DNA from: Myxococcota bacterium
GTDB lineage: Bacteria; Myxococcota_A; UBA9160; UBA4427
DNA: 64,000 bases
Assembly: GCA_965250285.1 (NCBI GenBank)
Contig: OZ252299.1
Coordinates: 3,744,001-3,808,000 of the forward strand
Direction of reading: 5' to 3'
The notes under the pieces were generated by a model. That model worked only from the letters and a program-made list of their open reading frames with translations. It did no database searches and was not told the origin of the DNA. This document shows positions 4,876 through 18,272 of the stretch, piece after piece. The stretch's first letter is position 1, and every line of letters begins with the position of its first letter. The translations under genes and the position numbers were made by a program.

Positions 4876-6357
4876 ATGACACTCACGCCGCAGTTCGAAG
4901 CGACCTACGCCCGACTCCCCGAGCGGTTCTTTGCTCGCCTGGCCCCGACGCCGGTCGCTGCACCGAGCCTCGTGAGGCTGAACGAGCCGCTGGCACGCGA
5001 GCTCGGCCTCGACCCCGAGCAACTCGCGTCCCCGGACGGCGTAGCGATGCTGGCGGGCAACGCCGTGCCCGAAGGCGCCGAGCCGATCGCGATGGCGTAC
5101 GCGGGGTTCCAGTTCGGCAACTGGACACCCCAGCTCGGCGATGGCCGCGCGATCCTGATCGGCGAGCGCGTCGGGGCCGACGGCGTGCGACGCGACGTCC
5201 AGCTCAAGGGCTCCGGACCGACGCCGTATTCGCGACGCGGCGACGGACGTGCCGCGCTCGGGCCGGTCCTGCGCGAGTACATCGTCAGCGAAGCGATGTG
5301 GGCGCTCGGTGTTCCGACGACCCGCTCGCTCGCGGCGGTCGCCACCGGCGAGTCGATCATGCGCGAACAGCCCGAGCCCGGCGCGGTACTGACGCGCGTG
5401 GCCGAGAGCCACGTGCGGGTCGGCACGTTTCAGCTGCTGGCGAGCCGCAGCGATGAAGAGGGGCTTCGCGCGCTCGCCGACTATGTCATCGAGCGCCACT
5501 TCCCCGAGGCGGCCGAGACCGAGCACCCCTACCTCACGATGTTCGAGACGGTGCTCGACCGGCAGGCCCGGCTCATCGCGCGCTGGCAGAGCATCGGCTT
5601 CATCCATGGCGTGATGAACACCGACAATACATCGGTCGTCGGTGAGACGATCGACTACGGCCCGTGCGCCTTCATGGACACGTTCGGCTACGACACGGTC
5701 TACAGCTCGATCGATCAGATGGGTCGCTACGCGTACGGCAATCAGCCCGCCATCGGCCAATGGAACCTGATGAGCTTCGCGAACGGCCTGCTGCCCGTGC
5801 TGGGCGCCTCGCAGGAGGAAGCAGTCGAACGCGCTCAGGGGGTGCTCGACCTGTACCCAGCCCGCTTCGACGCGGCGTATCGCGCGGGGTTCGACCGCAA
5901 GCTCGGGCTGAGCGGGCGCCGCGAGGGCGACGACGCCCTCGCAGATGACCTGCTCGAGATCATGGCCGCCCAGGGTGCGGACTTCACGCTCACGTTTCGC
6001 GGTCTCGGCGAGCTCGTCGAAGGCGCCGAGGGCCCCGACGAGGTCGTTCGCTCGCTCTTCGACGACCCTGCGGCGTTCGATGCGTGGGCCACGCGTTGGC
6101 GCGCGCGCCTCTCCGACGAGGCACGATCTTCGACCGAGATTCGGCGCGACATGGATGCCGTGAACCCCGTCTACATCCCGCGCAATCATCGCGTCGAAGA
6201 GGCAATTCGCGGCGCCGTCGACCGCGCTGACCTCGGCCCGTTCGAAGATCTCATCGCGGTGCTGTCGAAACCGTACGAGCGACAGCCCGGTCGCGAGCGG
6301 TACGAAGCGCCGCCGCGCCCCGACGAGGTGGTGCACGCGACCTTCTGCGGCACCTGA
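4876..6357 (+). CDS. selO: Protein adenylyltransferase SelO/YdiU
   Basis: [51 protein letters not shown]-terminal TFCGT. Confidence 0.96.
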
Positions 6358-7237: not shown

Positions 7238-9265
7238 TCAGCCCGGCGGATCGATCCAGATCGGCGACGACCAGGCGCGTTCGCGAATCGTCGCGGGCAC
7301 GCGCGGGTCGGGATCGCGCCCGAGCCGAATCGCATCGTACGTCGACCAGCGGCACGTCGGATTCTGCAAGACGCGAACGTAATAGAAGGCGCCTCGACTC
7401 GGGTCGTAGTCTTCATCCTGCCAGGCGGCCATCAGCTCACCGGCGCCGAGGCCAGCCTGCGGGCGGCAGTTCGCGAGATCGACCGAGGCGCCGTTGTCGG
7501 GGCATCGACGCGTCACGGGGTCGACCTCGAGCCCATCCGAACAGACGACGTCCTGCACCGACTCGTGCGTCTCGCCCGCCTCGTCGATCCACCCCTTCAC
7601 GACCTGAACGCGTTGCAAGGGTGCGCTCATCCAGTCGGCACCGGCCCAGACGAAGAAGGTCGGGCTCTCGTCGCCGACCTGGTTGAGCCGCAAGACACCG
7701 CCCATCGGAACCCCGCCATTGGTGGCGACGGCGACGGGCTCGCTCTCGCCGACGATCGACTCGTCGAAACCGAAGCCCGCGAAGAACCGCAGCGTGATGC
7801 GGGGACCGGATGTGGCGTAGGCTTCGCGGCGCTTCATGCCTTCGAAGATCGAGTCGCGGGTGTTCTCTTCGGCCCAGACCGCAGCGAGCCCGCCCGAACC
7901 GTGATCTTGCAGGATGCCCTGGTGCGGCTTCGCACCCGGCTGCGTGCGCAGCCTCCGCACCGCCGGTGAACCGACGGCGCCGACCTTGCCCGTGAAGTCC
8001 CACTCCTCGGCGTCCCCGGGGTTCGAGTTGTGGGCGTCGGTCGCGGCGACGAAGCCGAAAGCGAGGGGGTTGAAGCCGAGCTCGCGATCGAGCTGCATCC
8101 CGATCTTGAGACCCTGTCGGGCGAACGACGACTCGAAGGCGCAGCCTGAATCCTGCCCCGGCTCGCAGGGCTCGAGCACCTGCTCGAACGCGCACTCTTC
8201 GTCGGTCGCCCCGACACCGAGTGCGCACTCGGAGGCGCCCTTCACCTGATACATCTCGGCCAGAGGTTCATGCCGCTTGCGCAAGCGCCAGGCATCACTG
8301 TCATACGCTCCGCCGTCCCACGTATGGCGGCTGTAGAAGAGACCCCACCCCTTGTTCATGTTGTGCGGAATCGTCAGGAAATCGCAGTCACCGGTGCACG
8401 CCGCCTCGAGCCCGCGCCACAGCTCGACGGCATTGGGGACGTCCTGGGACGAGATCGCACGTTCGGGCAGCGCATCGCCGTTGAAGATCACGTTGCGATG
8501 GTGCTTGCCCGCGCCGTCGAGGACGGGCGAGAACTCGTAGGCCGCAAATGTGGTGAACACGCCGGGCTCGTTGTGCTCGTCGGCGAGCGACTTGTAGCGT
8601 GCCCAATCCGAGCGGCTGTCGCGCACGCATCGCTCCATCCCGCCCTCTCCCCGAGTGCAGATGGGGAACGCGGCCAGCGAACGCGGTGTGCGGGATCGAT
8701 TCTGATACACGCCGGCCGGCACACTCGGATCGGGCGCGAAGTCGCCCCCCCGGCTTTGGCGCTGCATTAGGAAGAAGGCGGTCATCCAACCCGGCGTCTC
8801 CATGAGCCAGCAGTTGACCTGCTCGAGCAGCGTGGTGTCGTCGTCACCGCATCGCGTGCGCAGGCCGAAGCCCTCGGCGTGGTCGGTGATCGCGACGAAG
8901 TCGAGGGGCCGCGAGAGCTGCATGAGCTCCCCGCCCGCGCTGCGTAGGGGCTCGCCCCGCGCGAACGCGTAGGCATCTTCGACGCTGGCCGTCGTGCCGA
9001 AGAGCACGGCGTCGAGGCTCTCGACCGTGTGCACGTGCACCTCGCCCCAATAGACGTTCTTGAGCTCGTCGTAGGGTCGGGGCTCGAGCACCTCGGGTGT
9101 CGGGATCTCGATCCGGCTGTCGTCCTGCAGTGCGAGGTCACCCGGTGCAGTGGCGGGCACGATGGCCTGCGACAGCTCGTACACCGGCCGCAGGACGAAC
9201 CAGCCGATGATCCCCACGACGAGCAGGGTGAGTGCGCCTGCCCCGAGCACGATCCGCTTCAGCAC
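7238..9265 (-). CDS. DUF3604 domain protein (PHP-like putative metallohydrolase)
   Basis: YWGEVHVHT..SLDA, PLDFVAITDHAE, IPHN, TDAHNS, RERAWSSPIW; N-terminal TM; GTG start with GGAGG. Confidence 0.9.
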   Translation of the reverse strand: MLKRIVLGAGALTLLVVGIIGWFVLRPVYELSQAIVPATAPGDLALQDDSRIEIPTPEVLEPRPYDELKNVYWGEVHVHTVESLDAVLFGTTASVEDAYAFARGEPLRSAGGELMQLSRPLDFVAITDHAEGFGLRTRCGDDDTTLLEQVNCWLMETPGWMTAFFLMQRQSRGGDFAPDPSVPAGVYQNRSRTPRSLAAFPICTRGEGGMERCVRDSRSDWARYKSLADEHNEPGVFTTFAAYEFSPVLDGAGKHHRNVIFNGDALPERAISSQDVPNAVELWRGLEAACTGDCDFLTIPHNMNKGWGLFYSRHTWDGGAYDSDAWRLRKRHEPLAEMYQVKGASECALGVGATDEECAFEQVLEPCEPGQDSGCAFESSFARQGLKIGMQLDRELGFNPLAFGFVAATDAHNSNPGDAEEWDFTGKVGAVGSPAVRRLRTQPGAKPHQGILQDHGSGGLAAVWAEENTRDSIFEGMKRREAYATSGPRITLRFFAGFGFDESIVGESEPVAVATNGGVPMGGVLRLNQVGDESPTFFVWAGADWMSAPLQRVQVVKGWIDEAGETHESVQDVVCSDGLEVDPVTRRCPDNGASVDLANCRPQAGLGAGELMAAWQDEDYDPSRGAFYYVRVLQNPTCRWSTYDAIRLGRDPDPRVPATIRERAWSSPIWIDPPG

Positions 9266-9416
9266 CGAAGACGCCCTCCTCCGCGACGTCCTCCTCGCCA
9301 GACACGGCTCGGGGCGACGCGAACGGTGACCACGCGATGCGTTCACATATCACATCTGACGATGTCATCGGCGCCGAACTCGCGCCGTCGCTGCTTCGGA
9401 ACGAGGGCGAGGCCCC

Positions 9417-10940
9417 TCACACCTCGCCGGAGTAGGCCTCGCAGAGATTCCAGAGGCGCGCGCGGTCTTCGTCGGATTCACGCGTCCACGGAAGGAGGTG
9501 CGTCTTTCGCGCACGGCGATCGAAGTAGAACCGACCGCTCTCGATCGTTTCGCTGTCGCTCGCCGCGAGCCACACGACCGTATCGGCCCCCTCCGCCGGC
9601 GAGCGCAGGATCGCCTCGGTGACCCGGTGAAAGGTGGGGAGCGACGAGGCGACGGCTGGGGTGTCGGCCCAGCCCGGGTGCATCGACGTCACGGTGACGC
9701 CCTCGGCCTCGAGTCGCTCGGCCCACATCTCGGCCAGCACGACCTGCGCGCGCTTCGTCTCGGCGTAGGCGAGCACGCCGTCGTAGTCGCGCCGCGACCA
9801 ATCGGGATCGTCGAGGTTCAGCGCTCGCGTGTACATCCCCCCGGACGAGACCCAGATCAAGCGACCATCGGACGACGCCGCGAGCCGGTTCTGGAGCATC
9901 CGCGTCAGCAGGTAGGGGCCGATGCAGTGCGTCGCCCAGGTCAGCTCGATGCGTTGCGGCGACAAGACGCGCATGTCGGGCAGCACCCCGGCGTTGTGCA
10001 CCAGCACGTCGACGGGCGACTCAGCCAGCCGCTTGCCCGCTGCACGCACCGAGTCGAGATCGCTCATGTCGACCACCTCGAGATGCACCGCCGCGTTGCC
10101 GGTGCGGGCCCGAATCTCTTCGACGGCGGCGCGCCCTCGCCCCTCGCTCCGGCAGAGCAATACGACCTCGGCACCGAGATCGGCCAGCGCCTCCGCGGTC
10201 GAGCGGCCGATGCCCGAGTTGGCGCCGCTCACGAGACATCGCCGTCCGCTGAGATCGACCTCGAGGTCGTCGGGCTCGAACGTGAGCGAGTGGATGCGAT
10301 AGCCGGTGCGATCGAATGAGCCGACGATCAGCGGGTCGACGACCCGCGAGAGCGCCTCGCCGACGATGCGCTGCGCGCGTGACACCTCGATGCGCTCGTC
10401 GAGGCTGGGTGCATCGCGATCGAGCGCCGCGAGAATGTCCTCCGGGCGGGCGTGGTCACCCGCGACCTCGCTTCGATGGCTGAACGTCAGGCGCCCACCG
10501 GGTTGGATCACGAAGGCGCCGCCGAGCTGCCAGGGGTCGCCCTGGACGCCTTCCTGGCGATGCCCCGCGGCCAGCGCGCGCCCGGCATTCACGGCGAGGC
10601 GCGGTGACAGCACCTCGACGCGGCCGCGCCGCAGCCCCGCGGCGCGATAGGCGCGCAGCTCGGGGTCGACCAGGAGCGGGCCCTCGAGTGCGAAATCCTC
10701 ACGAAACGCCTCGGCGAAGGAGCGAGCGCCGTTGCCGACGATGACCAGCTCGGCGCCTTGTTTTTGGATCTCGGGAAGGGCGTCGCGCAACTGCGCGACC
10801 TGCTCGCGGCAGAACAGTCAGCCGAAGTGGCGCAAGAAGACCAGGACCGCCGGGCGGTCACGCCAGTACGAGCCCAGCGCGAAGCGGTCGCCCGCCGCGT
10901 CTTCGAGCTCGATCGGCGTGAGTTGGCGCACGATGTCCAC
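9417..10940 (-). CDS. Selenocysteine-containing AhpC/TSA (peroxiredoxin-like 2/SelL-related) redoxin fused to a DHRS12-like SDR
   Basis: GGAG-N6-GTG at 10940; codon 41 is TGA (10818-10820) in VFLRHFG*LFCRE, in frame with the 457-aa ORF; redoxin motifs LVDP..RAY and QGDPWQLGGAFVI; SDR motifs SGANSGIG, YAETK, MHPGWADT. Confidence 0.9.
10782..10817 (-). promoter_or_regulatory. Candidate bacterial SECIS element
   Basis: GTCGCGC-AGTT-GCGCGAC: perfect 7-bp stem, loop 25 nt after UGA, G at loop position 2. Confidence 0.7.
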
Positions 10941-11065
10941 GGTCGACTCCAGTCGGTGAACCAGGCAGATGCCGGCCGCGGCCCGAAGGTCACGCTCCGA
11001 CCCCCGGGCCGGCGCTGAGGATCGTCTCGAGCGCCGGGCCGCGGCGACGCGGCGAAGCAGCCGCT

Positions 11066-11239
11066 CTACGCCACGCGTCGCAGCCTTCGCGATCGCTCGC
11101 CGCGGCTGTGCTGCGCGCGGACCCGCACTTTGGCCGTCTGCGTGCGCGCCAGGTAGCGCTCACGCAGAAACACGTAGGCGCCGCCGAAGGCGATGAACGA
11201 GATCGCCACCCCGAACGTGAGGATCTGCATGTCATTCAT
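11066..11239 (-). CDS. Small single-TM protein with a basic tail
   Basis: MNDMQILTFGVAISFIAFGGAYVFLRERY; start overlaps the end of the upstream ORF. Confidence 0.6.
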   Translation of the reverse strand: MNDMQILTFGVAISFIAFGGAYVFLRERYLARTQTAKVRVRAQHSRGERSRRLRRVA

Positions 11240-11468
11240 GGTCATGACTCCCGATGAGCAGGTTGGCGGCCGAGAGGATCGACGGGACCCAGAGTCCGAC
11301 GAAGATCCCCTCCTCGCGCTGACCAGCGAAGAAGAGGTAGACGGAGGCGGCGAGCGACAGGCCCGCAGCAAGAAAGAAGAGCGCCTTTGGCGTGGTGACC
11401 CCGAGCGCCGAATCGATCGCGGCATCCTCACGGTCTTCGCGCCGGACGTGCTGCACCTTCACCTCCAT
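11232..11468 (-). CDS. Small membrane protein
   Basis: GGAGG RBS; two hydrophobic segments, GIFVGLWVPSIL motif. Confidence 0.7.
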   Translation of the reverse strand: MEVKVQHVRREDREDAAIDSALGVTTPKALFFLAAGLSLAASVYLFFAGQREEGIFVGLWVPSILSAANLLIGSHDHE

Positions 11469-11574
11469 GACTGACCTCCGCGCTGATCCGGGCGATGAGG
11501 ACCCGGCCTGGGCCACGCAGCGCGGTCTCTCGCCGCTTCGCGTCTCCCAATGGCTTCTCAGATGCACCCTCTGA

Positions 11575-11635
11575 TCATGAAGTATCGTTTTTGTTTAATA
11601 TTACTTGTTCAAAATTGATATTCGGGGCATGTTCT
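11575..11635. promoter_or_regulatory. AT-rich divergent promoter region
   Basis: Sharp AT-rich patch (TTTTTGTTTAATATTACTTGTTCAAAATTGATATT) between divergent small genes. Confidence 0.55.
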
Positions 11636-11653
11636 CCGTGGGAGCACGCCACG

Positions 11654-11827
11654 ATGAGTGAGGCGAACGAGACCAATCGGCGGGAATGGGCGGCGCGAGC
11701 GTTGGGGGTTGCGGTGGGCCTTTTCGCCGCGGCCGTCGCCTGGTCGACCCTTCGCTGGCCAGCCCCTGCGATCGCGTTCGCGCTGGGCTTCGGGGCCTAT
11801 CTCGCGGCGAGCCCGAAGGAACACTGA
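11654..11827 (+). CDS. Small two-TM protein
   Basis: GGAG RBS, 57 aa, two hydrophobic helices. Confidence 0.55.
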   Translation: MSEANETNRREWAARALGVAVGLFAAAVAWSTLRWPAPAIAFALGFGAYLAASPKEH

Positions 11828-11884
11828 GCGTCGCGGCCAGGTGATCCGCGCGCGCTGGTCGGCGATCCGCCATTCGGCGTAGGC

Positions 11885-13369
11885 TCAGACCTGGCCGCGC
11901 GTGAGCCCGCGCAACAATCGATCAGCCGTCTCGAGCGTCTCAGCCCGGTCCGCCAACCTGTCGAGGCTTCGAACGGCCATCGACGTACGGGGGTAGCGAC
12001 TCAACCGGTCGCGATGTCGGTCGACGAAGCGCCAGTAGAGCGCCGTCAGCGGGCACGCCGCGTCGCCGACGCGCCGCTTCGGATCGTACGCGCAGTCGCC
12101 GCAGTGATCGCTCATGCGGTTCATGTACGCGCCACCCGCCGCATACGGCTTGGACGCCATCTGTCCGCCGTCGGCGTGGAGCCCCATGCCGATCACGTTC
12201 GGCACCATCACCCACTCGGCCGCGTCGACGAAGCTGCGCTCCATCCACGCGAGCAGATCCAGCGGACGCACGTCGGCCAGAAGCCCGAGATTCGCGAGCA
12301 CCATCAAGCGCTCGATGTGATGCGCCCAGCCCCGCTCATGCACGTTGCCGACGGCGGCGCGCACGCAGGCCATCGATGTTCGAGCCGGATCTTCGAAGCT
12401 CGGCAGCAGCTTGCGCCGCGCACCCAGTGCGTTGAGGCTTCGGTAGTCGGGCATCCAGAGCCAGTAGACGCCCCAGACGTACTCACGCCAGCCCGCGATC
12501 TGACGAACGAAGCCCTCGGCGGATGCGATCGGGACGCGCCCTTCGCGGTAGGCGCGCTCGGCCGCCTCACAGACCTCTGCGGGATGCAGCAGCCCGATGT
12601 TGAGCGCCGGGCTCAGGAGCGCGTGGGCCAGATGCCACGACCGCGTCGTCATCGCATCCTGATGCGGGCCGAACTGCGGCAGGCAGTCGTCGACGAAGTG
12701 ACGCAGTCGCTTGAGCGCCGCGCGGCGCGAAGTGGGCCACCAGCCTTCGGGATCGGCTCCAAAGCCTGCTTGCCCGATCTCATCGAGCACCTCGCGATCG
12801 ATCGCGTCGAGCTGTGAGCGTACAGGCGCCGGCCAGACGCCCTCCTTCGGCGGGGGCTTTCGGTTCTCGGGGTCGAAGTTCCAGCGCCCGCCCGCCGGCT
12901 CGTCGCCATCCATCAAGTACCCGAGTCGGGCGCGCTGCCAGCGGTAGAAGTTCTCCATGCGCAGCGCGCCGCGGTCGTTGGCCCAGGCGCGAAATGCGTC
13001 GGGATGACACAGGAACTGGTCGTTGGCCACGAGCTCGACGCCCCAGTGCTCGAGCCGTTCGGCCGCGCCGAAGCGGCTCGGCTCCATCGCGACCACGCGC
13101 TCGGGAGCGTGCTGCGCCACATGCGCTTCGAAGCCGACGCGCATGCTGGTCGCCTTGCGATAGTCGACTTCGAAGCCCGCCCCTTCGAGCTCCGAAGCGA
13201 ATCGGCGCATCGCAGTCATGTAGAGATGAAGTCTCTGACGGTGCCAACGGTGGGCGCGAAGGCGGGCCTCGCTCTCGACGAGCAGCACGCGTGTATCGGC
13301 CGGGGTGCAATCGCGCAGCGAGGCGATCTGGCGGTTCAGCTGATCTCCCAGGATCCAGACGGTCTGCAT
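11885..13369 (-). CDS. Fe-S bacterial cryptochrome/(6-4) photolyase family protein (FeS-BCP/CryPro)
   Basis: WILGDQL, RMENFYR, GGRWNFD..NR, EGFVRQIAGWREY, HHIERLMV, SKPYAAGGAYMNRMSDHCGDC, ACP (Fe-S cysteines). Confidence 0.95.
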   Translation of the reverse strand: MQTVWILGDQLNRQIASLRDCTPADTRVLLVESEARLRAHRWHRQRLHLYMTAMRRFASELEGAGFEVDYRKATSMRVGFEAHVAQHAPERVVAMEPSRFGAAERLEHWGVELVANDQFLCHPDAFRAWANDRGALRMENFYRWQRARLGYLMDGDEPAGGRWNFDPENRKPPPKEGVWPAPVRSQLDAIDREVLDEIGQAGFGADPEGWWPTSRRAALKRLRHFVDDCLPQFGPHQDAMTTRSWHLAHALLSPALNIGLLHPAEVCEAAERAYREGRVPIASAEGFVRQIAGWREYVWGVYWLWMPDYRSLNALGARRKLLPSFEDPARTSMACVRAAVGNVHERGWAHHIERLMVLANLGLLADVRPLDLLAWMERSFVDAAEWVMVPNVIGMGLHADGGQMASKPYAAGGAYMNRMSDHCGDCAYDPKRRVGDAACPLTALYWRFVDRHRDRLSRYPRTSMAVRSLDRLADRAETLETADRLLRGLTRGQV

Positions 13370-13438: not shown

Positions 13439-14215
13439 TCAGCGCTCGTCGGCGTCCCGCGACAGCTTGAGCTGCCCGAGCGCCTTGCGACGCAGGTAGG
13501 CGTACTGCTCGAGCAGCGGCAGCCCTTTCGGACAGACGTCGTGACAGCCCATCAGCCCCACGCAGCCGAACACACCCTGGTCGCTCGCGACGACGTCGAA
13601 CCAGTCGTCCTCGTCTCGGGCGTCCCGGGGATCGCGCATGAATCGCGCAATCCGATTCAGGCCGGCCGCTCCGACGAAGTCGTCGCGCACGTTCGCAACC
13701 CCGCAGCCGGCGATGCAGCAGCCGCACTCGATGCAGCGCTCACCCTCGTAGATCGCCTGGGCCAGCTCATCGTCCATTCGTTCTTCGACGGCCTCGGGAT
13801 CGAACGGCGCCTTCTCGTGCACCCAGGCACCGACGCGCTCGGCCATGTTTCGAAACCACGTGCCGGTATCCACCGAGAGATCGCCGACCATCTTGAAGAC
13901 AGGCAGCGGCTGCAGCCGAATCGTGTCGGGCAGGTCGCGGGTGAGCGTCTTGCAGGCGAGCGCCGGCCGACCGTTCACGACCATTCCGCACGAGCCACAG
14001 ATGGCCGACCGGCACGCAAAGTCGAACTGCAGGCTCGGGTCGAGTTCTTCACGGATCTCGTTGAGCGCCGTGTACAGGGTCATGTACGGCTTCTCGACCA
14101 GCTCGAACGTGTCGAAGCGCGGCTTCGAGTCGGGGGCTTCCGGGTTCAGTCGGAAGACTTCGAACACGAGGGTGCGGCCGACGTCGATCGAGACTTCTTG
14201 CACGATCATGGACAT
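13439..14215 (-). CDS. frdB: Fumarate reductase Fe-S subunit
   Basis: CRSAICGSC..LAC, CIECGCCIAGC, CVGLMGCHDVCPK; RBS AGGAG. Confidence 0.93.
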   Translation of the reverse strand: MSMIVQEVSIDVGRTLVFEVFRLNPEAPDSKPRFDTFELVEKPYMTLYTALNEIREELDPSLQFDFACRSAICGSCGMVVNGRPALACKTLTRDLPDTIRLQPLPVFKMVGDLSVDTGTWFRNMAERVGAWVHEKAPFDPEAVEERMDDELAQAIYEGERCIECGCCIAGCGVANVRDDFVGAAGLNRIARFMRDPRDARDEDDWFDVVASDQGVFGCVGLMGCHDVCPKGLPLLEQYAYLRRKALGQLKLSRDADER

Positions 14216-14232
14216 TCGATCACTCCTGCACG

Positions 14233-16200
14233 CTACTCGCTGCGCTGCGGCGGCGACGTGTGATCCGCCGAGTCTTGCCAGCGCCCCCACCGCATCCGGC
14301 TGCCCAGCGGTTCGGAAGGGTCAGGTGCACCGCCGGCGCCCCAGGCAGCGCCGACGGCGCGGTTGTAGTCCTCGATCGAGGACTCCATCCCGACGGTGAG
14401 ACTCTTGCCGTAGCCCCGGTCGCCCGGCGGCAGATCGATCAAGCCCACCGGCTCGTACGAGAGGCGGGCCGCGCCTTCGTCGTGGGACCAGTGGGCGAGT
14501 GTGCGGTTGAGCCAGCGATCGTCGTCCCGTGCCGGATGGTCGGTTCGGTAGTGGGCACCGCGGCACTCCGTACGAGCGAGGGCGCCCTGCGCGGTGATCA
14601 GCGCGAGGCGCGCCATGCCCTCGAGGCGCAGCGCGAACGTGAGCTCGGGGTTCGCGCCGGGCGCCTTCGAACGCAGGGCCGCACGGCCGACCAGCGCGAG
14701 CTGCCCTTCGATCTCCTTCGTCGCCTGCTCGAGCTCTTCACCGTTGCGAAAGACGCCGACCTTGTGATTGAGCGTCTCGGCGATCGCGTCGCGAATCGCG
14801 TACACGGTCGGGCCATCGGCGGATCGCTCGAGCCAATCCACGAGCCGGCGGTCGACGTCGTGGTGGAACGCATGCGCGACGGCCGTGTCGAGGGCGAGCG
14901 ACGTCTGCGACGCGAACTCGGCCACGTGGCGCCCGACGAAGCGTCCGGCGACCACCGTCTCGGCGAGGCTGTTGCCGCCGAGCCGATTGAAGCCGTGCAG
15001 ATCCCAGCAGGCCGCCTCACCGACGGCGAAGAGACCGCGCAGGCCGTAGGCCTCGCCGTGCTTGTTGACGCGCACACCGCCCATCGAATAGTGCTGGATC
15101 GGCCGCACCGGGATCGGCTCGCGCGCCGGATCGAGGCCGTTGAAGTCGCGACAGATGTCCCAGACCTCGCGCAGCTTCGTTCGCAGATGCTGCTCACCGA
15201 GATGTCGAAGATCGAGCCACAGGTGCTGGCCCGCGTCGCTCTCGACGCCACGCCCATCCTTGATCTCGGCCATCATGTGGCGCGAAACGACGTCGCGGCT
15301 CGCCAGCTCCTGCTTCTCGGGCTCGGCACGCACCATGAAGCGCTCGCCCTGGGTGTTGAGCAGATACCCCCCGTCCCCGCGACAGCCTTCGGTCACGAGA
15401 ATGCCGCTCGGGACGAGCCCGGTCGGGTGAAACTGCACAGCCTCCATGTTGCCGAGCGGAACGACACCGGTATCGAGCGCGAGCGAGGCGCCAGTGCCCT
15501 CGTTGATCGTTGCGTTGGTCGTGTAGCGACCGTAGATGCGGCCGTGGCCCCCGGTCGCGACGACTGTCGCCTTGGCGACGAAGGAGGTCAGCGCGCCGGT
15601 GCGCAGGCATCGGGTCACGGCGCCCCAGCAGCGGCCAGCGTCGTGGATCAGCGAGAGCGCCTCGATGCGATCGATCACGCGAATGCCGAGGCGCACGACC
15701 TCGCCATCGACGGCGTACAGAACGGCGTGGCCCGTGCCCGCCGACGCGTAGCAGGCGCGCCACTTCGCGGTCCCGCCGAAGTTGCGGTGCATGATCAGGC
15801 CGGCCTTCTCGTCGGGCTCGTCGATCTCGACCTTCTGCCCCTTGACGAAGTAGGTGTTTCGGCCGGGGCGCACGCGCGTCCAGGGCACGCCCCAATGCGC
15901 GAGCTCGCGCACGGCGACGGGCGCCTCTTCACTGAAGATCCAGGCGACCTCCTGGTCGGCGCCCCAGTCGGATCCACGCACGGTGTCGAGGAAGTGCAGC
16001 GTCGGGTCGTCGCCCTCGGCCTTCACGCAGTTGCCGAGTGCCGCCTGCATCCCGCCTTGGGCGGCGCAGCTGTGGCTGCGGCGCGGCGGCACGAGTGAGA
16101 GCAGCGTGACGTCGTGCCCCGCGACTGCGGCCTCGATGGCGCAACGTTCACCGGCCAGCCCGCCGCCGATCACGAGGACGTCGGTCGATCGCAGGTCCAT
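14233..16200 (-). CDS. frdA: Fumarate reductase flavoprotein subunit
   Basis: GGGLAG, RSHSCAAQGG (covalent FAD His), QFHPT, TEGCRG, HYSMGG, HGFNRLGGNSL. Confidence 0.95.
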   Translation of the reverse strand: MDLRSTDVLVIGGGLAGERCAIEAAVAGHDVTLLSLVPPRRSHSCAAQGGMQAALGNCVKAEGDDPTLHFLDTVRGSDWGADQEVAWIFSEEAPVAVRELAHWGVPWTRVRPGRNTYFVKGQKVEIDEPDEKAGLIMHRNFGGTAKWRACYASAGTGHAVLYAVDGEVVRLGIRVIDRIEALSLIHDAGRCWGAVTRCLRTGALTSFVAKATVVATGGHGRIYGRYTTNATINEGTGASLALDTGVVPLGNMEAVQFHPTGLVPSGILVTEGCRGDGGYLLNTQGERFMVRAEPEKQELASRDVVSRHMMAEIKDGRGVESDAGQHLWLDLRHLGEQHLRTKLREVWDICRDFNGLDPAREPIPVRPIQHYSMGGVRVNKHGEAYGLRGLFAVGEAACWDLHGFNRLGGNSLAETVVAGRFVGRHVAEFASQTSLALDTAVAHAFHHDVDRRLVDWLERSADGPTVYAIRDAIAETLNHKVGVFRNGEELEQATKEIEGQLALVGRAALRSKAPGANPELTFALRLEGMARLALITAQGALARTECRGAHYRTDHPARDDDRWLNRTLAHWSHDEGAARLSYEPVGLIDLPPGDRGYGKSLTVGMESSIEDYNRAVGAAWGAGGAPDPSEPLGSRMRWGRWQDSADHTSPPQRSE

Positions 16201-16205
16201 CGCAG

Positions 16206-16997
16206 CTACCCCTTCAGCAGGAAGGCGAGCGGCGGATCGGCCCACCCGGCCAGCACGACGAGCGTGACGGCGCCGAGGCCGAGAAAGCCGACGAGCAGCA
16301 CGCGCTCGATTCGGAGCAGGGTGCGACGACCCAGCCGGGCCCCGATGCCCCACTTCACGGCAAAGCGATAGAGCCCGACGCTCGCATGGAATTCGACGCA
16401 GAGCAGAAGTACGGCGTAGACGACCCAGAGCCCTGCCCCCACCCGGGCCTGCGACGTCGCCGCCTCGATCCCCGTGCGCTCGCCGAACAGCGGCGTCAGC
16501 ACGTCGACGGCGACCAGCACCAGATGGAAGCTGCCCAACACGAGCAGCGTCATGCCCGTCCAGACCTGCCAGAGCCAGAGAGACGACTCGACATGCGGCG
16601 TGTAGCCCGTGCCGCGTGCCTTCAGCTCGTCGCCGAGAGCGCGCAGCCGCCTTCGCTCGCGAATCTGGGCGGGGATCTTGCGGCTCGCGAGGGCGGCGTG
16701 CGTGAGAAAGAGCGCCGAGATCGCAAACACGGTTGGCTGCGCGATGTAGACGTGCTCGAGCCCCGACGCGAGCCAGTCGAAGCCGCGCGCGCCCGTGAGG
16801 ATCGAGCCCACCAGCACCATGTGGCCCCACATGAAGAAGGCCAGTCCCACCCCCGAGAGGCCACTGGCCAGCTCGTACACGAGCTGGCGCTGGGCCTCCC
16901 GGCGGAGAGACGTTGCCCCCGCCCGCCGCTGCCAGGGGAGAGGGGATGCGCGGCGGGCGGGGGGTGAAGTGCGGTCCTGGGGGGTGGCAGCTGCCAT
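16206..16997 (-). CDS. frdC: Fumarate reductase di-heme cytochrome b subunit (Wolinella/Desulfovibrio type)
   Basis: About 5 TM; FMWGHM, HAALASRKIP, WLWQVWTG..FHL, VEFHASVGLYRFAVKWG. Confidence 0.9.
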   Translation of the reverse strand: MAAATPQDRTSPPARRASPLPWQRRAGATSLRREAQRQLVYELASGLSGVGLAFFMWGHMVLVGSILTGARGFDWLASGLEHVYIAQPTVFAISALFLTHAALASRKIPAQIRERRRLRALGDELKARGTGYTPHVESSLWLWQVWTGMTLLVLGSFHLVLVAVDVLTPLFGERTGIEAATSQARVGAGLWVVYAVLLLCVEFHASVGLYRFAVKWGIGARLGRRTLLRIERVLLVGFLGLGAVTLVVLAGWADPPLAFLLKG

Positions 16998-17026
16998 GAC
17001 TGGAACGTATGGCACCCGCATCCCAA

Positions 17027-17079
17027 TGTAAACTCTTTGAATACATTTTATTTGACAAAGAGTGTTCTTTCGATAGCTT
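17027..17079. promoter_or_regulatory. AT-rich divergent control region with an inverted repeat and a sigma70-like promoter
   Basis: ACTCTTTG-N16-CAAAGAGT (17032-17063); TTGACA (17052) -N16- TAGCTT (17074). Confidence 0.65.
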
Positions 17080-17237
17080 CCCGTTCGTCGAGATATAGGA
17101 CCGCGCGGCTCACCGGCCCGTCGGCTCGCGCACAAATCCTCGAACCGGGCAGGAACAGCGATCGTGTCCACGTTCTAGTCGGCAAAAGATGTACCGTCGG
17201 CGAACCCGTCGACGCGAGAAAGAGGAGGTCGACGGCG

Positions 17238-18272
17238 ATGACCCCGCAGCCCCAGGGACCGTCCAATGGAGGGGGAGCACACGTGGCCCAGCAGGATCCC
17301 GATCAGTCGCTGTATCGCGTCGGCACGGCGGCGCAGCTGAGCGGCGTGCCGCCGGCCACCATCCGTGCCTGGGAGCGGCGGTACGGTGCCGTCGACCCGA
17401 AGCGATCCGAGACCGGGCGGCGACTCTACGACGATGAAGACGTCGCGCGGCTGCAGTTGATGAAGGCGCTGACGGATGTCGGCGATCCGATCAGTGCGAT
17501 CGCCAACCTCGATTATGCCGAGCTCCGCGATCGACTCGATCGCCACGCTGCCCGGCCCCAGCCCATCGACGGCGATTCGACGATGGCGACGCGGGTTGCC
17601 CTACTCGACCCCGAGATCGAGGAGCAGATCCGCGCGAACCCCGGCGACTTCTCGCCGCTCGAGGTCGCCGGGGCGGATGGCTCGATCGACTCGTTCATCG
17701 AGCGGCTGCCGGGCATGCAGGCCGACGCGCTCGTCATGCACATCGACCGACTCGGCCCCGACCCGGTGACCGCCGTCGATCAGGCGCTCAAGGCGGCCGG
17801 CGCGAACGTGGCGGTCGTCCTCTACCACTTTGCCGCTGCGCCCACCCTGCGGCGACTCGCCGATCGAGGCGTGCGGCTGCTCATGCTGCCGACGCGCGTC
17901 TCGTCGCTTCGACGCACGATCCGCGACTTCATCGACATCCGCCGGGCGACGGCGGTCCGCGACGCCCTCATCGCGATCGAGTCGCGCGCACCGGATGACC
18001 GCGCGTCGGCGGCCGCCGAGCGACGCTTCACCGATGCCCAGCTGGCCCGGCTGCAAGAGATCACCAGCTCGGTGGAGTGCGAGTGTCCGAGCAACCTGTC
18101 GGGTGTGATCAAGAGCCTGGTCGCGTTCGAGCGCTACAGCAGCCAGTGCGTGAGCGACAGCCCCCGAGACGCCGAGCTGCACCGGGCGCTCGAACGCGGC
18201 ACCGGCCACGCCCGCGCGCTCATGGAAGAGCTGCTCATGCGCGTCTGCGAGCACGACGGGCTGACGATCTGA
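17238..18272 (+). CDS. MerR-family regulator with a CarH/LitR-like HTH and a Cys/His C-terminal domain
   Basis: YRVGTAAQLSGV..TIRAWERRY..R.Y; C-terminal ECECP...FERYSSQC..DAELH; GGAGG RBS. Confidence 0.9.
   Translation: MTPQPQGPSNGGGAHVAQQDPDQSLYRVGTAAQLSGVPPATIRAWERRYGAVDPKRSETGRRLYDDEDVARLQLMKALTDVGDPISAIANLDYAELRDRLDRHAARPQPIDGDSTMATRVALLDPEIEEQIRANPGDFSPLEVAGADGSIDSFIERLPGMQADALVMHIDRLGPDPVTAVDQALKAAGANVAVVLYHFAAAPTLRRLADRGVRLLMLPTRVSSLRRTIRDFIDIRRATAVRDALIAIESRAPDDRASAAAERRFTDAQLARLQEITSSVECECPSNLSGVIKSLVAFERYSSQCVSDSPRDAELHRALERGTGHARALMEELLMRVCEHDGLTI

Follow-up and report, generated by a model that had tools for sequence, protein, structure and literature searches.

Architecture of the locus

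The window analysed here is a stretch of 64,000 nucleotides from a Myxococcota bacterium (GCA_965250285.1, contig OZ252299.1). On its minus strand, positions 10940 to 9417 form a single frame of 507 codons with one internal stop, a TGA at codon 41 within RHFG*LFC (Table 1). This frame joins a redoxin to a complete SDR, as the original prediction had described. A plus-strand reading of the same interval was rejected: it is interrupted by stops and encodes no such protein. A start codon lies 39–42 codons 5' of the TGA in 32 of the 33 fusion loci described below. A plain ORF caller starts at TTG 10790 and returns 457 residues that lack the active site.

Table 1. Features of the fusion gene and its surroundings (window positions).
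Feature	Position	Strand	Details
Fusion gene, 507 aa	10940→9417	minus	start GTG at 10940; stop TGA at 9419–9417
Redoxin domain, SelL-related / PRXL2-type thioredoxin fold	10416..10940	minus	about aa 1–175
In-frame TGA, predicted selenocysteine	10818..10820	minus	codon 41, first position of UxxC motif
Predicted bacterial SECIS hairpin	10782..10799	minus	7-bp stem, 4-nt loop AGUU
Linker	10356..10424	minus	aa 173–195; variable sequence, almost fixed length
SDR domain	9420..10355	minus	aa 196–507; PF00106, residue column counts, fold matches
Second small hydrophobic ORF, 57 aa	11066..11239	minus	overlaps stop of the 78-aa gene; no Pfam match
Small hydrophobic gene, 78 aa	11232..11468	minus	upstream, same strand; no Pfam match
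AT-rich 26-mer, candidate promoter/operator	11588..11613	minus	5' of the two small genes
DPRP (photolyase-related) gene	11885..13369	minus	PF04244, 189 bits
MerR-family regulator	17238..18272	plus	no B12-binding Pfam match

In the N-terminal part, Pfam finds AhpC-TSA_2 (PF13911, 64 bits) and AhpC-TSA (PF00578, 41 bits) at residues 7–158, and the NCBIfam profile NF040769 scores 146.3 bits against a cut-off of 120, with profile positions 4–172 of 173 covered. The C-terminal part matches adh_short (PF00106, 86 bits, residues 236–432) and carries the complete classical SDR signature (SGANSGIG, HNAG, S366, Y392, K396). The GANSGIG and YAETK motifs named in the original prediction lie at residues 239–245 and 392–396; C263-R264, H338 and HPGW (421–424) are further residues of the domain. 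Counted by column over 113 sequences, S366, K396 and C263 occur in all and Y392 and R264 in 112, and His338 occupies a position that is Asn in most SDRs. These profile and residue matches place the fusion in NF040769 and among the classical SDRs. Conservation is lowest in the linker, with 32% identity versus 63–71% in the domains, and this least conserved stretch (about 10356–10424) agrees with the linker position proposed beforehand, about 10330–10430. AlphaFold2 models the whole chain with a pLDDT of 88.7 and a pTM of 0.84; the Atlas model of a Cys variant has a pTM of 0.69. No solved structure spanning both domains was found (best query TM 0.48). Among longer fused forms (889–2535 aa) none scored, a result of little weight.

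Upstream of the fusion gene, we infer that the 57-aa ORF shares its transcript. Homologues of the 78-aa gene occur in 9 of the 33 fusion loci, the window's included, and an ORF similar to the 57-aa one follows the small gene in locus L088. Copies of the 78-aa gene type are found close to the fusion, to a stand-alone SDR and to photolyase/SRPBCC genes, and the window's genome has a second copy (L181:7856-8080). Both small genes are candidates for unnamed members of a light-stress cluster. The AT-rich 26-mer 5' of them has 18 of 26 bases in common with a site at 17036–17061, upstream of the MerR gene, and the genome has no other such site when up to three mismatches are allowed; this match was equalled by 6 of 400 random AT-rich pairs, the site having been chosen after inspection. 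A sigma-70 promoter scan of 9000–12100 returned none.

Homologues of the MerR gene are divergent from the fusion in genomes G030 and G180. The C-terminus of this MerR protein has a C-x-C...C pattern, with the third Cys 21 residues past the second, a possible counterpart of the cysteines of class III LitR. The MerR gene is separated from the DPRP photolyase by a succinate dehydrogenase/fumarate reductase operon (13439–17171, minus), which shares the divergent promoter region containing the 26-mer 17036–17061; as a curious parallel, Sdhb of fish is induced by blue light (PMC5394683). The downstream flank of the fusion holds a SelO-family adenylyltransferase (4876–6357, plus), a cytochrome P450 (3315–4724, plus) and a DUF3604 gene (7238–9265, minus). 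Neither SelO nor DUF3604 recurs among the neighbour clusters of the other fusion loci.

Decoding of the in-frame UGA

We then considered how the UGA is read. The TGA stands at the codon-41 position in all 33 genome fusion loci, aligned with a Cys of the homologues, and the second motif position, after Sec in UxxC, is TGC or TGT in 31 of 31 genes. The host genome (6.25 Mb, single contig, 95% complete) has selA, selB, selD and tRNA-Sec, all over their cut-offs. A selA match and tRNA-Sec are present in 28/28 fusion genomes; selA is also present in 23 of 25 other genomes tested. A hairpin begins 18 bases 3' of the TGA, with its loop 25 nt from the UGA, and the 30-nt hairpin segment folds at -14.0 kcal/mol. 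Its values lie within all four bSECIS criteria given in PMC13188914 (a loop of 3–9 nt on a stem of 4–16 bp, a G in the first two loop positions, a spacing of 16–37 nt and an MFE of at most -7.5 kcal/mol). Longer windows folded alone are no better than shuffles (z -0.3 to -1.9), so that the case for the hairpin stands on conservation. Over 41 sequences (33 fusions and 8 stand-alone redoxins, with the stand-alone redoxins G389 and G384 left out as their hairpin differs), 99% of 287 cells are paired, and two-sided changes are seen at 2 of the 7 pairs, a level reached by 1 of 500 shuffles. All 31 full-length genes have TTG at the loop codon, Leu51, versus 88 of 1812 other Leu codons (4.9%). A natural control is provided by the only Cys-form fusion found (P0014, locus L100): it has TGC in place of the TGA, retains neither the loop sequence nor the TTG, and sits among Sec forms in the tree. 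With the Sec machinery, the conserved UGA and hairpin, and this Cys variant, the proposal of a selenocysteine redoxin held up, and the UGA is predicted to be very likely decoded as selenocysteine.

The 40 codons 5' of the UGA are themselves conserved (50% identity, R37-G40 invariant), which argues against a true stop, that is, a 40-residue fragment followed by a protein restarting at TTG 10790, or else a pseudogene or misassembly. The invariant TTG of codon 51 could serve as such a start, and 119 of the 120 best database homologues are annotated from after the UGA. This TTG, however, lies inside the hairpin, is lost in the Cys variant, and persists in stand-alone redoxins, in which restarting there would yield a fragment lacking the active site; moreover, the fusion is found in 28 independent genomes. 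A true stop therefore has very little chance of being the right explanation. A separate internal start for the SDR was also rejected: residues 166–235 have no conserved start codon (best column 13/31). As the linker has no conserved start codon, the SDR is predicted to arise only via read-through. SelB would almost certainly read the hairpin and insert Sec41, the downstream SDR then being made only when selenium permits read-through.

The gene is systematically misannotated, in that gene callers cut the fusion short. Among the best 120 database homologues, all have the GDxWQLGG-type redoxin motif and only one has the active-site motif; the other 119 begin 3' of the UGA. An Atlas cluster of 136 members has the same architecture under an automatic name.

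Distribution and history of the fusion

When the architecture was searched for with read-through of the TGA allowed, it turned up at full length and with a single TGA in 14 of 40 relatives and 23 of 400 genomes taken from the phylum, for a total of 28 distinct other genomes and 29 genes, every one in the class of the window. Outside this class, no fusion was found among the sampled genomes (400 from the phylum). Three additional fusion loci came from genome contigs, and 80 metagenome loci yielded 7 Sec-form fusions and the Cys form. Record titles and cluster taxa of the matches indicate Myxococcota. Three records carrying these genes (L028, L031, L032) are titled Spirochaetaceae or Spirochaetales; the L028 protein is identical to that of a genome of the window's genus (G001), and the NCBI organism labels look wrong. 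Genome G306 has two divergent copies (L074 and L084), with 67% and 57% identity to the fusion of the window; each has the TGA and the hairpin.

The fusion is kept across about eight families at 54–81% identity, with an almost constant linker length. Contigs of three runs (X1, X2, X3) cross the linker without difference, although all three belong to one study that may be the source of this DNA. An assembly artefact was rejected on the recurrence of the fusion in relatives and in genomes of the phylum and on these bridging contigs. The supposition that no Sec-redoxin/SDR fusion had been characterised was supported, none being found in the literature searched. The architecture is common within one class.

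Stand-alone UxxC and CxxC redoxins are found across the phylum. We collected 45 stand-alone redoxin loci (9 + 36). In four of them (G145, G152, G342, G343), an SDR of the same type directly adjoins the redoxin with a four-base start/stop overlap. The SDR comes first in G145 and G152 and the redoxin in G342 and G343, the last being a Cys form. Each of these four comes from a different family outside the class, and they do not cluster together in the redoxin tree; the other 41 loci have no adjacent SDR. With overlapping neighbours in both orders, the redoxin and the SDR appear to be partners.

We built quick trees of both domains, in which the support for the fused clades is unstarred and moderate. 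The fused redoxins fall in one clade (support 92; 32 fused and 3 stand-alone), and so do the fused SDRs (support 83; 39 fused, 2 stand-alone and one partial), whose sister is the SDR of the G145 operon. Both topologies fit one fusion event followed by several fissions. The two domains have come apart again at least twice, which means that the fused state is not obligatory. At L088:8950-9700 (genome G031), an SDR from inside the fused clade stands without a redoxin; its frame opens at the linker helix with no clear start codon, which suggests a recent loss of the redoxin part by deletion.

Light-stress context

Recurrent neighbours of the fusion are a B12-binding MerR (CarH/LitR), a second MerR type, DNA photolyase, DPRP, DUF2867 and SRPBCC genes, together with ABC1 kinase, lipocalin, CMAS, DUF523/DUF1722, FolE2 and a Cys redoxin paralogue; catalase-peroxidase and glutathione peroxidase are also found. 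A CarH/MerR regulator or photolyase lies at 13 of the 33 fusion loci versus 1.4% of 20-kb windows of the host genome, and any scored light-cluster gene at 19 of 33 versus 4.8%, the queries having been drawn from these same loci, whose lengths are 3.7–20 kb. For the lower-GC loci L072, L074, L084, L085 and L091, neighbours were scored by tblastn. Against the light reading, a regulator or photolyase is absent nearby in 20 of 33 loci, and none of the scored light-cluster genes is present in 14 of 33. Genome-wide, a CarH match occurs in 25/28 fusion genomes versus 12/37 other genomes of the class, in 21/24 versus 12/27 at a completeness of at least 90%, and within one family in 11/14 versus 5/21; kin are not independent in these counts, so that p-values overstate the association. 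The suggestion of photo-oxidation had been made on the neighbouring photolyase. That gene alone is a weak indication, a DPRP-type neighbour being present in only 3 of 33 fusion loci, and the idea is better served by the regulators and photolyases of the 13 loci and by CarH genome-wide.

Regulator or photolyase neighbours were found at 2 of the 45 stand-alone redoxin loci versus 2 of the 3 stand-alone SDRs of the class; the SDR thus seems the older member of the light cluster. In the window's own genome, a Cys (CxxC) paralogue of the redoxin (L180:9286-9924; G000:C1 about 4305300-4305900) lies in an operon divergent from a B12-CarH gene, with CMAS, a flavin oxidoreductase, DUF1365 and DUF523/DUF1722. 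Homologues of this paralogue form a clade of their own and are found immediately 3' of the fusion in G005, G016, G306, G340 and G375. DUF1365, which is a domain of the furan-fatty-acid oxygenase UfaO (PMC7380195), is present in 13 of 28 fusion genomes versus 7 of 37 others. Since it is limited to these 13, furan fatty acids were rejected as the general substrate and are left only as a possibility.

The same kinds of genes are known from light responses elsewhere. In Pseudomonas, a LitR regulon induced by light is made up of phrB, ufaM, folE and an SDR (PMC9758184), DUF523/DUF1722 genes are frequent in light-responsive operons (PMC11417400), and fish Dhrs12 is induced by blue light along with photolyases (PMC5394683). 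In the 95% complete own genome, neither a PF00494 (phytoene synthase) match nor a crtI over the cut-off was found; without a phytoene synthase match, the regulon here does not serve carotenoid synthesis. CarH operators are tandem 11-bp TnnACA repeats (PMC9304148). No such repeats were found at 10/12 matches upstream of the window's fusion copy; G194 carries them 5' of its fusion, and G257 5' of a stand-alone redoxin. The G257 gene is a Sec redoxin (L183 / L057) with tandem TnnACA-type repeats (11/12 matches) directly upstream, a candidate CarH operator. The fusion gene is probably induced by light or singlet oxygen, judging from these neighbours and from the CarH co-occurrence, and the CarH context points to the stress under which the two halves may act.

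Proposed function and rival explanations

In the PDB, the redoxin has a single sequence match, 9US9 (E 3e-13, residues 14–173), human prostamide/prostaglandin F synthase, whose CxxC reduces the lipid endoperoxide PGH2 (PMC12938796). The two proteins align over R-x-F-G-C-x-x-C-R and G-D-x-x-Q-x-G-G. Arg40 of 9US9 is kept as R37, and Arg41, which is adjacent to the peroxide (PMC12938796), is replaced by H38 in the fusion; we counted this replacement against a lipid-peroxide reading. As to the SDR, its closest fold neighbours are protochlorophyllide reductases (LPOR, the best matches, at 22–26% identity) and 3RD5; the LPOR match reflects the SDR subgroup and does not indicate a substrate. A basic residue after the second strand of an SDR marks NADP(H) preference, and R264 (112/113) fits this criterion, so that NADP(H) is the predicted cofactor. 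Related SDRs of the retinol-dehydrogenase type reduce lipid-peroxidation aldehydes.

In our best reading, to which we give a probability of about 0.5, the fusion would detoxify photo-oxidised lipids in two steps as part of a light-stress regulon. Light or singlet oxygen would induce the gene. The Sec41/Cys44 pair would reduce a lipid hydroperoxide or endoperoxide, as prostaglandin F synthase does PGH2, and once oxidised would be re-reduced by the thioredoxin-type system of the cell; the SDR with NADPH would reduce aldehydes or ketones arising from the same damage. That both steps occur, lipid-peroxide reduction by the redoxin and carbonyl reduction by the SDR, is an even bet, and certainty falls in the order Sec insertion, light induction, redoxin step, SDR step. 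A more elaborate version, a selenium-gated, light-induced repair enzyme whose Sec redoxin opens singlet-oxygen-derived lipid peroxides (furan fatty acid peroxides, for example) and passes the carbonyl to the SDR, is speculative and rather doubtful. If it were true, DHRS12 and the SelU/PRXL2 redoxins would be an ancient pair of partners in photoprotection, present in bacteria and retained up to fish, and a common pathway would link two orphan families of human proteins.

The main rival is a plain co-expression fusion, in which translationally coupled neighbours of one stress regulon merged once and act on unrelated substrates. It has a real, if minor, chance of being correct: the four-base overlapping operons offer an easy path to fusion, a single origin with later fissions agrees with both trees, the same SDR family elsewhere adjoins or is fused with SRPBCC or DUF2878, and the linker sequence is poorly conserved. 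The retention of the fusion in about eight families with a linker of almost fixed length speaks against it, and the AlphaFold2 pTM suggests a defined arrangement, though the Cys-variant Atlas model is less confident. Alternatively, the redoxin could act on the SDR itself, by keeping its conserved Cys reduced, by switching it through redox state or by taking electrons from SDR-bound NADPH. C263 is invariant and stands beside R264 at the cofactor site, and NADPH is described as keeping the CxxC of PGFS reduced (PMC12938796). The Cys-Arg pair, however, is also found in stand-alone SDRs and so does not depend on a redoxin. An SDR passes hydride to a carbonyl and lacks a flavin that could hand electrons to the selenenylsulfide, which makes direct electron flow from NADPH to UxxC unlikely. 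An action of the redoxin on the SDR is accordingly improbable. Finally, a function independent of lipids and light (for instance, a general defence against peroxides, or a reductase for a pigment, pterin or quinone) might be read from the 14 loci devoid of scored light-cluster genes, from the protochlorophyllide reductases among the fold matches, and from catalase-peroxidase, glutathione peroxidase, FolE2 and ABC1 kinase nearby. The genome-wide co-occurrence with CarH is at odds with it and the LPOR match, at its low identity, mirrors only the SDR subgroup; we regard such a function as quite improbable.

The two-step detoxification of photo-oxidised lipids remains our preferred reading, and both halves of the protein come from poorly understood families that are also found in vertebrates. 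The conserved fusion, together with overlapping operons in both orders, is a concrete hint of their joint action.

Relation to known systems

The N-terminal domain scores above the family cut-off of NF040769, the SelL-related family (Prx-like2 / AhpC-TSA_2 group); the difference is that it is here joined to a 312-residue SDR. Eukaryotic SelL proper has a UxxU motif with two Sec residues, whereas the second position in the fusion is Cys. The protein also differs from peroxiredoxins (AhpC/Prx), whose peroxidatic motif is PxxxTxxC/U (PMC13188914): it has RHFGUxxC, AhpC-TSA being merely the Pfam name. The closest relative of solved structure is PRXL2B/FAM213B (SelU3, 9US9), which has R-x-F-G-C-x-x-C-R in common with the fusion redoxin, and SelU relatives exist in Sec and Cys forms (PMC3473315). 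Compared with PRXL2B, the fusion is bacterial, has Sec for the first Cys and His for Arg41, and carries an SDR; a prostaglandin substrate is not expected.

Known selenoprotein fusions (Prx-PP2C, Prx-like-DsbC and arsenite methyltransferase-AhpD; PMC2398784, PMC9402790, PMC13188914) likewise combine a thioredoxin-fold Sec domain with a second enzyme domain; here, in contrast, the second domain is an NAD(P)-binding SDR, in a light-stress setting. SDR fusions are absent from Table 1 of PMC13188914 (119 families) and from the fusion sections of PMC2398784 and PMC9402790. LitR/CarH clusters (the Pseudomonas PplR/PmlR regulon and myxobacterial CarH) have photolyases, a UfaM-type methylase, FolE, DUF523/DUF1722, an SDR and a MerR regulator in common with the fusion loci; they differ in that no selenoprotein is named in the cluster descriptions of the two sources (PMC9758184, PMC11417400). 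What is new is thus an architecture beyond the selenoprotein catalogues compared and the placing of a selenoprotein in a B12-dependent light-stress context; as both domains have chemistry of a known type, the fusion is not categorically new.

JGI names many homologues of the fusion 'SDR family member 12', and the DHRS12 label of the fusion SDR comes from such database names and from motif resemblance, the Atlas having given bacterial SDR clusters. A literature search listing contained no DHRS12 substrate. DHRS12-like SDRs otherwise stand alone or are fused to SRPBCC or DUF2878; the fusion differs by its N-terminal selenoprotein domain, through which translation of the SDR would depend on UGA read-through. 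The stand-alone SDR relatives (38–62% identity) adjoin SRPBCC, CMAS, DUF2867, photolyase and CarH genes.
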